64,000 nt of DNA from positions 1,343-65,342 of the forward strand of contig JAZRIJ010000083.1 of the NCBI GenBank assembly GCA_045645205.1, written 5' to 3'. The stretch is from Eubacteriales bacterium. Its GTDB lineage: Bacteria > Bacillota > Clostridia > Oscillospirales > CAG-272. The position numbers and the translations under genes are program-made. A model generated the notes under the pieces. It was not told the origin of the DNA. It saw only the letters and a list, made by a program, of their open reading frames with translations, and did not search any database. How positions within the stretch are numbered: the first letter of the stretch is position 1; each line of letters begins with the position of its first letter. Below, piece by piece: positions 55,675 to 56,491 of the stretch.

Positions 55675-55822
55675 TAAGTTTGAACTGCGCTATGTCATTT
55701 AAATAAAATTTCCCCGCCGAGAGCCTTTGCTGCATTTGAGGATGATACGGCGGGGATTAATTATACTTTTACATCGATACGTATAGAGGAGAGTTTTTGG
55801 AGCTGTTTTTTTATTGATAATA

Positions 55823-55851
55823 TTGACATTTTTTATTAATGATGATATACT
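55823..55851 (+). promoter_or_regulatory. near-consensus sigma-A promoter of small RNA copy 1
   Basis: TTGACA, 17 nt, TATACT with an extended -10 TG. A TTTTTATTGATAATA upstream block is shared with copy 2. Confidence 0.65.
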
Positions 55852-55857
55852 GATTGT

Positions 55858-56081
55858 GCGAAACAAAACTCAATAAGCAGACTGTAGGAGTATTCTCTTT
55901 TTATTTTAGGGAGTAGTATACTCTTTTTATCTGTTTGTAAGTTTATCTTTTGAACTTGGAAAAAATGCAAATTCCACTTGATAAACTTACAGGATATTCC
56001 TTGTTTGTTCGAGTTTTGTTTCGCGACAATTGGGGTTTGCGTTTTTCGGTGCGCGGCTTTGACTGCGCACTTTTTTGTTTT
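55858..56081 (+). ncRNA. candidate structured small RNA, copy 1 (about 224 nt), family unknown
   Basis: 14-bp closing stem GCGAAACAAAACTC (55858-55871) / GAGTTTTGTTTCGC (56011-56024), an inner 12-bp stem TGTAAGTTTATC / GATAAACTTACA, and a terminator GTGCGCGG-CTTTGA-CTGCGCAC plus TTTTTT (56049-56076). Confidence 0.6.
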
Positions 56082-56170
56082 TAAAAACACATACTCCAAA
56101 TTGCTGCGACGCAATCTGTATTTCACAGATGTTATCACGTAATTTAAACTGTCCATTTTTATTGATAATA

Positions 56171-56199
56171 TTGACATTTCTTATTGAAAATGATATACT
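56171..56199 (+). promoter_or_regulatory. near-consensus sigma-A promoter of small RNA copy 2
   Basis: TTGACA, 17 nt, TATACT with an extended -10 TG. It is a repeat of the copy 1 promoter block. Confidence 0.65.
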
Positions 56200-56205
56200 A
56201 TCAAT

Positions 56206-56364
56206 GCGACACATCTGAATAAGTTTACCATAATAGGTGCATTTTTAATTTGGTAAAAATGCATCCTCTGTTTTTGCACCTTTATGGTATAAAAACGATG
56301 TGTCGCAGCATTCGAGGCAATGCATTTTTCGGTGCGTGGCTTTGGCTGCGCACTTTTTTATTTC
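56206..56364 (+). ncRNA. candidate structured small RNA, copy 2 (about 159 nt), paralog of copy 1
   Basis: 10-bp closing stem GCGACACATC (56206-56215) / GATGTGTCGC (56297-56306), an inner stem CCATAATAGGTGCA / TGCACCTTTATGG, a GCATT-CGAGGC-AATGC hairpin, and a terminator GTGCGTGG-CTTTGG-CTGCGCAC plus TTTTTT. Confidence 0.6.
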
Positions 56365-56491
56365 GAAAAAAACATATACTCCAAATTGCTGCGACCAATA
56401 TAGAGATTTATCCGTATGGAGGGCAAATAATTATGTTGCTCATCATACGGATAATATCTTTTTTAGGTGAATAGGGGATATATTGACTTTT

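Follow-up and report, generated by a model that had tools for sequence, protein, structure and literature searches.

Two units in a gut Oscillospirales contig as probable orphan copies of a riboswitch-like transcription-attenuator leader family

Overview

The stretch of DNA considered here (the window; 64 kb of contig JAZRIJ010000083.1 from a Eubacteriales bacterium of the order Oscillospirales) carries two tandem units on its plus strand at positions 55806-56400, downstream of spoVS and convergent with an acyltransferase/GT8 operon. A preliminary description, made from the sequence alone, took them for free-standing small RNA (sRNA) genes. Comparison with relatives points elsewhere. With a probability of roughly 0.7, the units are copies of a widespread family of riboswitch-like transcription-attenuator leaders of Oscillospirales that have been orphaned in this locus. 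The RNA family itself is real and apparently undescribed. Its members mostly lie upstream of open reading frames (ORFs), place a terminator before the Shine-Dalgarno (SD) sequence, form an antiterminator (AT) that excludes this terminator, and share a covarying core domain.

Range of the family

The preliminary description had proposed Clostridia as the place to look for homologues. Three pattern scans recovered more than 200, almost all of them in metagenome-assembled genomes (MAGs) of Oscillospirales. The first scan used the 3' module, TTTTCGGNGCGNGGCNNNNGCNGCGCNC, on one genome per GTDB species and matched at least 119 stretches. The second used another anchor (GGTAAAAAYG, 30-60 nt, then TGTGTCGCAGCAA) and matched at least 120, with little overlap with the first. 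The carriers are labeled Oscillospiraceae, Acutalibacteraceae, Ruminococcaceae, Ruminiclostridium, Faecousia, Eubacteriales, or Clostridia, with a few chance matches besides, and their MAGs come from the guts of humans, rodents, rabbits, chickens, and ruminants. Several assemblies are listed repeatedly, such as CANRMX01, whose four units are spread over three contigs. At loci L001, L004 (three units), L021, L074, L077, and L211, units stand in tandem arrays and each keeps its own promoter. The longest array, L004:6396-7058, places three units, each apparently with its own -10 hexamer, upstream of a gene for an XRE-family regulator. Viral contigs gave only 2 matches in 2.9 million, and a phage origin was dropped for this reason.

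A covariance model of 163 positions, R1, was built from an alignment of 98 sequences (A2). A second alignment, A3, consists of 101 R1 matches from loci found without using the 3' module. A search of the window with R1 finds exactly two units: unit 2, with 145.5 bits (E = 2.7e-24), matches the model along its whole length and stands at the top of the family range, and unit 1 reaches 84.5 bits (E = 2.8e-13).

Is this a known RNA? The preliminary description could not place the fold in any family, and that stands for the window and for typical loci alike. Rfam 15 families at gathering score give no match anywhere in the 64 kb and none on the units of 18 typical loci. In the more relaxed E-value mode, the region of the two units in the window yields chance matches only, and 13 short loci yield scattered chance matches with no recurring family. 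The families without a match include 6S, tmRNA, SRP, RNase P, T-box, c-di-GMP-I/II, preQ1, SAM-II, ZTP, and Clostridiales-1. No description of the family was found in the literature, including two large motif catalogues. At one locus, the start of the contig (L135:1-151) matches the Rfam Gut-1 RNA below threshold (40.8 bits versus a gathering score of 50), the match being cut by the contig end; it lies about 90 nt upstream of the unit at L135:244-404.

Genes downstream of the units

The position of the homologues relative to genes is far from random. For 194 units, 300 nt or more of downstream sequence was available. An SD-led ORF on the same strand, 40 codons or longer, lies within 150 nt downstream of 170 of these units (88%), versus 34% of 2,000 random positions in the same loci. 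Within 40 nt, the proportions are 72% and 12%. The enrichment over background is thus 2.6-fold at the wider distance and 6-fold at the narrower one. In the preliminary description, the absence of a following plus-strand gene had been held against a leader. There is indeed no such gene in the window, but the argument does not carry over to the family.

The largest cluster of downstream genes encodes BspA-type leucine-rich repeat (LRR) surface proteins (BLAST clustering places 44 of 170 genes there, and 27 of 148 have Pfam LRR_5). Lipobox-like starts are seen in 45 of the 170 genes and hydrophobic N termini in 103. Small families that recur are DUF6809, XRE helix-turn-helix proteins, AbrB/MazE-like proteins, zinc-ribbon proteins, small Cys-rich proteins, and ABC ATPases, and a further 63 families are singletons. 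A motif search of the 170 genes found no GGDEF or EAL motifs.

These counts bear directly on the idea that the units are sRNA genes of about 155 to 220 nt that act in trans on mRNAs or a protein, with the ORFs of the relatives being coincidental or reached by read-through. Each window unit does have a strong promoter of its own, an efficient-looking terminator, and no co-oriented gene behind it. Some 3 to 4% of family members look similarly orphaned (e.g., L220, L172, L099, L104, and L178), and about 3% are followed by another unit. The thermodynamically favored fold is the terminated one, and riboswitch leaders that act in trans are known, namely, SreA/SreB of Listeria and EutX of Enterococcus. 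Against this stand the 88% of units that lie directly upstream of a same-strand, SD-led ORF and a covarying AT in competition with the terminator, for which a constitutive sRNA would have no use. Helices within the RNA itself account for the conserved strands. Free-standing sRNA genes are therefore unlikely, and this part of the preliminary description gives way, at the level of the family, to a leader whose 3' module is an antiterminator/terminator platform.

Consensus and conserved helices

A typical unit is 145 to 180 nt long. Reading from the 5' end of the A2 consensus, an extended -10 is followed, mostly 4 to 5 nt further on, by helix P1, whose 5' strand is UGCGACACAAnU. Then come the junction J1/2 (GAAUAUU), a variable P2 ending in AAGUAUGC, and AUUUUU, which together with the preceding UGC makes up the 5' arm. 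After a short loop there follow the mid strand, GGUAAAAAUGCAUGCUCU; then UUUUCGCAUACUU and the 3' strand of P2; and the 3' strand of P1, AAAnUUGUGUCGCA. The 3' end consists of the linker GCAAUC, the 3' arm GGAGCUAUGCGUUUUU, CGG, and the terminator hairpin with its U6 tract. Sequence conservation reaches at least 90% in AAUA of J1/2 and in CA of the linker. A -10-like hexamer is present in 105 of 109 units, mostly 4 to 5 nt upstream of P1, and 72 of these have the TG extension. The promoter sets +1 at P1, and the 5' end of the RNA is base-paired from about its first nucleotide.

Covariation supports six helices. In A2, P1 is 99.9% paired with compensatory changes at 7 of 8 pairs (one pair occurs as GC in 63 sequences, CG in 21, UA in 8, and AU in 6). 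P4, the long-range helix between the mid strand and the 3' arm, is 93.2% paired (compensatory at 9 of 14). P3, the local hairpin between the 5' arm and the mid strand, is 88.4% paired (5 of 9), and the top of P2, in which AAGUA plus UGC pairs with GCAUACUU, is 80% paired (8 of 8). Controls in which the partner strand was slid along are 15 to 60% paired. Mutual information with average-product correction (APC) recovers P1 (extended to about 12 bp), P2 top, P3, P4, and the terminator, and it reveals no additional long-range pairs. Because P3 and P4 share the mid strand and P3 and P2 top share UGC, these helices cannot all be formed at once. Four of the six (P3, P4, AT, and the terminator, T) make up a mutually exclusive relay. 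The alternative pairings that the preliminary description had noticed in the second copy are thus real and general to the family, corresponding to P3 versus P2 top.

P3 is usually a hairpin of about 10 bp in which an invariant GG pairs with YY under a loop of the UUCG/UUUG type. This extension of the stem and these loops account for the invariant GG; ideas of T-box-like UGGN:NCCA pairing, of a triple helix, or of UTP-dependent pausing for the U/A tracts and the GG were dropped as speculation. A subfamily in A2 has no U5 in the 5' arm (L007, L010, L011, L026, L035, L068, L070, L090, and L105). In its members, GCAUAC pairs with GUAUGC of the mid strand; these RNAs seem to retain the anti-P4 function, in a shifted register. 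L007, the one member that was worked through, has a longer P4 of 16 bp.

Could the units instead be mobile or repeated DNA, comparable to MITE or REP elements, with terminal inverted repeats that mimic P1? They are multicopy, intergenic, sometimes tandem, and sometimes truncated, and both halves of P1 are conserved in sequence. However, they show a strong bias in orientation and distance toward the downstream ORF, the promoter and the 3' arm/terminator are conserved outside the inverted repeat, and P1 varies by compensatory changes. Matches on viral contigs are scarce, as noted above, and no unit lies near the homologues of the convergent acyltransferase (at most 59% identity) in 80 loci of other genomes, 596 kb of sequence. 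Of the explanations considered here, a mobile element is the least likely.

Two further candidates were also rejected. A leader-peptide attenuator does not fit a transcript that starts at P1 without an SD sequence, and the ORF frames differ between the two window units. The AUG of the mid strand is not conserved: across 99 sequences, that column holds U 77 times and C 22 times. As for a type I toxin, the minus strand, read by eye, offers no hydrophobic peptide. The earlier judgment that coding is unlikely, based on ORFs that cross the two units in different frames, is upheld.

Expression platform

How would the core communicate with the terminator? A by-eye scan of the aptamer for a complement of the terminator 5' strand found none. 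The partner turned up in the 3' arm. Each of the 98 sequences was folded only as far as the end of the terminator 5' strand, (G)UGCGURGC. In about 70 of these folds, this strand is paired with GCUAUGCG in the 3' arm, as an AT of 8 bp with the loop UUUUUCGG. The 3' arm is common to AT and P4. The preliminary description had recognized a conserved 3' module, which is present; the small hairpin that it placed before TTTTTCGG is not an independent element and corresponds to the 3' arm pairing with either the mid strand or the terminator.

Because the terminator sequence had been fixed by the first search pattern, the pairing counts were run on A3. Here, the terminator is 99.3% paired (compensatory at 8 of 9 pairs) and AT 90.0% (4 of 8); the two halves of P4 are 98.9% and 86.2% paired, and P3 is 90.2% paired. 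Partner swapping gives a consistent picture. With 3' arms and terminator strands exchanged between sequences, AT has a mean energy of -6.19 +/- 0.19 kcal/mol, versus -7.18 for native partners. For P4, the means are -13.65 +/- 0.22 swapped and -15.96 native. In both cases, all 300 permutations came out above the native value. Of 127 instances found without the 3' module, 125 have the 3' arm, the hairpin, and the U-tail, mostly followed by GGAGG and a start codon. A single C-to-T difference between the terminator stems of the two window copies had been said to keep a G-U pair, and the whole family bears this out, with UG in 71 sequences and CG in 27. Median energies are -8.4 kcal/mol for P3, -8.2 for AT, -15.7 for P4, and -16.3 for T.

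It might be asked whether such a leader needs to switch at all. A constitutive promoter-leader cassette, in which P1 or the compact fold stabilizes or insulates the mRNA and the terminator is simply leaky, would suit a 5' end that is paired from about +1 and a cassette that precedes many unrelated accessory genes, among them the 63 singleton families. It would hardly account for three pairs of exclusive helices (P3/P4, P4/AT, and AT/T), each kept by compensatory changes, and a terminator of median strength -16.3 kcal/mol plus U6 before the SD sequence would waste expression. A nonswitching 5' untranslated region (UTR) is accordingly quite improbable, with only mobile DNA being less likely.

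Proposed mechanism

In the proposed attenuator, a sigma-A promoter would start transcription directly at P1, and the RNA would then take one of two folds. In the OFF fold, P1 and the full P2 would form, and the mid strand, AAAAAUGCAUGCUC, would pair with the 3' arm, GGAGnnAUGCGUUUUU, as P4, a long-range pseudoknot helix of 14 to 16 bp. With P4 formed, AT would be blocked, the terminator hairpin would form, and transcription would stop. In the ON fold, P3 would hold the mid strand, and the free 3' arm would pair with the terminator 5' strand as AT, allowing RNA polymerase to read into the gene that lies about 15 to 40 nt downstream. The passage from one fold to the other may begin at the GCUCU end of the mid strand, which is unpaired in the P3 state and could offer GGAG of the 3' arm a toehold from which P4 zips up. 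By forming, P2 top would take UGC away from the base of P3; correct folding of the P1-P2 domain should therefore push the relay toward termination. The relay would control termination, with a signal bound at the conserved core made up of P1, the internal loop, P2, and P4 setting the balance.

What might the signal be, and where might it bind? By nucleotide counting, P4 must join the top of P2 to the bottom of P1 across a linker of about 12 nt. This geometry would require a sharp bend at the conserved asymmetric internal loop, which makes the loop a natural site for a ligand or a protein. By analogy with pseudoknot-type riboswitches, it is most likely that a signal bound by the core promotes docking of P4 and termination. 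The regulon prompts the guess that it is a global cell-state or envelope signal. We favor a small molecule over a protein. In its fullest form, this proposal describes a new riboswitch class, in which the pseudoknotted core senses a global small-molecule signal (such as a nucleotide second messenger or an envelope-related metabolite) and, through the relay, sets the repertoire of BspA-type and lipoprotein surface genes throughout the Oscillospirales of gut and rumen, while the strongly promoted window copies serve in trans as decoys for sibling leaders or as their regulators; so extended, it is tentative and on balance doubtful.

The same attenuator could have a protein as its sensor: an RNA-binding protein, or an interaction with RNA polymerase of the NusG/LoaP-like or put-like kind, for which the window units would be decoys. 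The heterogeneous, envelope-rich regulon (with its 44 BspA-type LRR genes) and the lack of ligand-metabolism genes in the 25 commonest Pfam families and in the motif search would suit a protein, as would the sequence conservation of P1 and the junctions. The thermodynamic dominance of the OFF fold makes a factor that stabilizes the ON fold plausible. On the other side, the units are dispersed and do not sit beside a regulator, although no search for a candidate protein was made, and the known targets of such proteins (RAT, ANTAR, and the LoaP hairpin) are much smaller than a 110-nt core with a long pseudoknot. A protein sensor is the main alternative, less likely than not but well ahead of free-standing sRNA genes.

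Several observations weigh against a riboswitch-like leader as the explanation. (i) No transporter or enzyme suggestive of a ligand appears among the 25 commonest downstream Pfam families, which is unusual for a metabolite riboswitch. (ii) In its outer part, P1 keeps its sequence (UGCGAC/GUCGCA, conserved at 90% or more), which is more typical of recognition by protein. (iii) The OFF fold is far more stable, with medians of about -32 kcal/mol for P4 plus T versus about -17 for P3 plus AT. It is a thermodynamic sink, so the ON fold must be a kinetic product or be stabilized by a factor. (iv) All of the sequences come from one order, and kinship inflates the covariation counts. (v) Regulation in cis cannot be the present role of the two window units, which have no following genes.

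The two units in the window

Both units are on the plus strand. The promoter of unit 1 (55808-55851) consists of an A+T-rich block, the -35 hexamer TTGACA at 55823-55828, and the TG-extended -10, TGATATACT, at 55843-55851. That of unit 2 (56156-56199) has the same upstream block, TTGACA at 56171-56176, and TGATATACT at 56191-56199. The claim of a near-consensus promoter for each unit holds: TTGACA, a 17-nt spacer, and TATACT, with TG before the -10, match the consensus at 11 of 12 positions in both (55823-55851 and 56171-56199). The 64 kb contain exactly two copies of the 21-nt upstream block TTTTTATTGATAATATTGACA and exactly two of the 18-nt post-terminator sequence ACTCCAAATTGCTGCGAC, where 0.02 to 0.04 would be expected by chance.

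Unit 2 is a canonical member, with an RNA of about 155 nt (56205-56359) in which every element of the family is present. P1 pairs 56205-56215 with 56297-56307; the closing stem already reported, GCGACACATC/GATGTGTCGC, occupies 56206-56215 and 56297-56306 of it. J1/2 is UGAAUAAG (56216-56223). P2 pairs 56226-56233 with 56283-56290, and its top helix joins GGUGC (56236-56240) to GCACC (56276-56280). The 5' arm is GGUGCAUUUUU (56236-56246), the mid strand GGUAAAAAUGCAUCCUC (56252-56268), and the 3' arm GAGGCAAUGCAUUUUU (56314-56329). The terminator has its 5' strand at 56331-56340, its loop at 56341-56344, its 3' strand at 56345-56354, and U6 at 56354-56359. Energies are -12.2 kcal/mol for P3, -14.9 for P4, -6.9 for AT, and -16.3 for T, and when the RNA is truncated after the terminator 5' strand, P3 and AT are formed.

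Unit 1 is an atypical member, with an RNA of about 219 nt (55858-56076). Its closing stem P1, GCGAAACAAAACTC/GAGTTTTGTTTCGC, is predicted by folding to pair 55858-55871 with 56011-56024. J1/2 (AAUAAG) lies at 55872-55877, P2 pairs 55937-55946 with 55981-55990, the mid strand GGAAAAAAUGCAAAUUCC is at 55958-55975, and the 3' arm GGGGUUUGCGUUUUU is at 56032-56046. The terminator hairpin, 56048-56071, runs into U6 ending at 56076. Two features set this unit apart: a 65-nt insertion, folded as an extra branch hairpin in P2 (about 55873-55938), and the loss of P3. P4 is strong (-17.9 kcal/mol), the P3 hairpin is nil (0.0), and AT is weak (-5.8, with two mismatches), and the unit is for these reasons biased toward termination. 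Judged by these elements, it should terminate constitutively.

The long closing stems and the GC-rich terminators with T6 (56048-56076 and 56331-56359) were thus correctly described in both copies, as was selection on RNA structure, for which the folding z scores against dinucleotide shuffles (-7.3 for unit 1 and -7.0 for unit 2) now stand beside the covariation of the family. Aligned with each other, the two units have near-identical promoters and 3' ends and a divergent interior, with the insertion of about 65 nt in unit 1. Identity is mosaic: 55808-55851 and 56156-56199 are almost identical, as are 56042-56110 and 56325-56395, and identity falls below 50% in P1, P2, and the interior. Such a pattern suggests gene conversion, segment shuffling, or recombination among family members and not plain duplication followed by drift.

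Post-terminator elements and flanking features

A conserved element after each terminator was a further claim of the preliminary description. It is present behind both units and nowhere else in the family, being found only at this locus. Element 1, ACACATACTCCAAATTGCTGCGAC (56087-56110, plus strand), consists of a -10-like CATACT and a strand like the P1 5' strand, and it runs on as a full-length P1 5' strand, UGCGACGCAAUCUG, to about 56119. Element 2, ACATATACTCCAAATTGCTGCGAC (56372-56395, plus strand), has a -10-like TATACT, then UGCGAC, and then CAAUAUAG. Both read (C/T)ATACT, six bases, and UGC-UGCGAC, which is the start of the P1 5' strand. They look like truncated starts of further units, and comparable starts, truncated or internally deleted, follow intact units at loci L178, L005, and L008. 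In our reading, the locus is a tandem array in which two units are intact and two survive as remnants.

The elements share a second property. The sequence UUGCUGCGAC (56093-56110 and 56378-56395) is exactly reverse-complementary to GUCGCAGCAA, the consensus of the P1 3' strand plus the linker and the most conserved strand of the family. Read from the sequence, element 2 could form 9 bp with GUCGCAGCA (56303-56311) of unit 2. On a read-through transcript or in trans, UUGCUGCGAC could conceivably unzip P1 of its own or of sibling leaders. Its complementarity may equally be a by-product of its being a truncated P1 5' strand.

What lies downstream of the window units, if not a gene? Unit 1 leads to the promoter of unit 2, and unit 2 leads to a hairpin. 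This neighboring feature (56411-56474, plus strand), whose membership in the array is uncertain, begins with a long, near-perfect hairpin at 56411-56451 (UCCGUAUGGAGGGCAA...UUGCUCAUCAUACGGA), followed by U6 (to 56460); it encloses an SD sequence, GGAGGG, at 56418-56423 and a 13-codon ORF, MLLIIRIISFLGE, at 56433-56474. The hairpin appears as spurious miRNA-like matches in the relaxed Rfam search. Beyond the hairpin and U6 lies the 3' end of the convergent acyltransferase/GT8 operon. Probably, the hairpin either stops transcription a second time when unit 2 is read through or terminates the convergent operon; the feature could also be a remnant of the start of a lost cargo gene or a micropeptide gene. 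Read-through from unit 2 was also considered as a source of antisense control over the convergent operon, which is unlikely since the hairpin and U6 (56411-56460) intervene. At the other end of the locus, a G+C-rich hairpin without a clear U-tract, CCCCGCCG...CGGCGGGG (55715-55757), directly follows spoVS; it is presumably the spoVS terminator and separates this gene from the unit 1 promoter. No exact-protein matches were found for the SpoVS and acyltransferase of the window, and metagenome scans with locus-specific patterns gave no match.

The window copies are best read as orphan, cargo-less copies of the family, with the missing gene being peculiar to the locus and not to the element. They may be what is left of a tandem array in decay, or they may be short RNAs, made in abundance, that act in trans, for example, as decoys for a binder of the family.

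Significance and comparison with known systems

Few bacteria in the gut of humans, livestock, and rodents are as abundant as Oscillospirales or as little cultured, and to our knowledge essentially nothing is known of how they control their surface proteins. A family with hundreds of members, the architecture of a switch, and a regulon of BspA-like LRR proteins and lipoproteins would point to an undescribed, lineage-wide regulatory signal. If there is a ligand, the family would be a new class of orphan riboswitch whose expression platform is unusually explicit, all four relay helices being visible by covariation. If a protein is the sensor, the family would define a new antitermination regulon. 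As an annotation tool, the covariance model would label a recurrent "intergenic repeat" in many Oscillospirales MAGs and mark the true 5' ends of the downstream genes.

Which known leaders does the family resemble? Like the preQ1-I, fluoride (crcB), and ZTP (pfl) riboswitches, the family consists of 5' leaders that begin with the aptamer and have the terminator just before the SD sequence; its pseudoknot joins a loop to the 3' tail, and the 3' strand of that pseudoknot is reused in the antiterminator; and genomes carry many copies of it, sometimes in tandem. Unlike them, it does not match their Rfam models, its pseudoknot helix is 14 to 16 bp versus 4 to 7 bp, it has in P3 an extra "anti-pseudoknot" hairpin that makes a four-helix relay, and its downstream genes give no metabolic clue.

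The clostridial c-di-GMP-I/II riboswitches offer a likeness at the level of the regulon, which rests on general knowledge of C. difficile: they too are dispersed in front of surface proteins, adhesins, and heterogeneous genes and use terminator platforms. However, there is no match to RF01051 or RF01786 even at E = 5 to 10, the consensus and the layout of helices differ, and the motif search turned up no GGDEF or EAL protein among the 170 downstream genes. With the trp and pyr attenuators and the T-box leaders, the family shares an exclusive chain of helices (1:2, 2:3, 3:4, and 4:5) that ends in an intrinsic terminator. In contrast to them, it has no leader-peptide ORF or SD sequence, no specifier loop, no T-box sequence, and no RF00230 match, and its downstream genes are not those of amino acid or nucleotide biosynthesis. 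For the window units in particular, SreA/SreB of Listeria and EutX/Rli55 of Enterococcus and Listeria, which are terminated leaders without cargo or with a function in trans, may serve by analogy as a lead.

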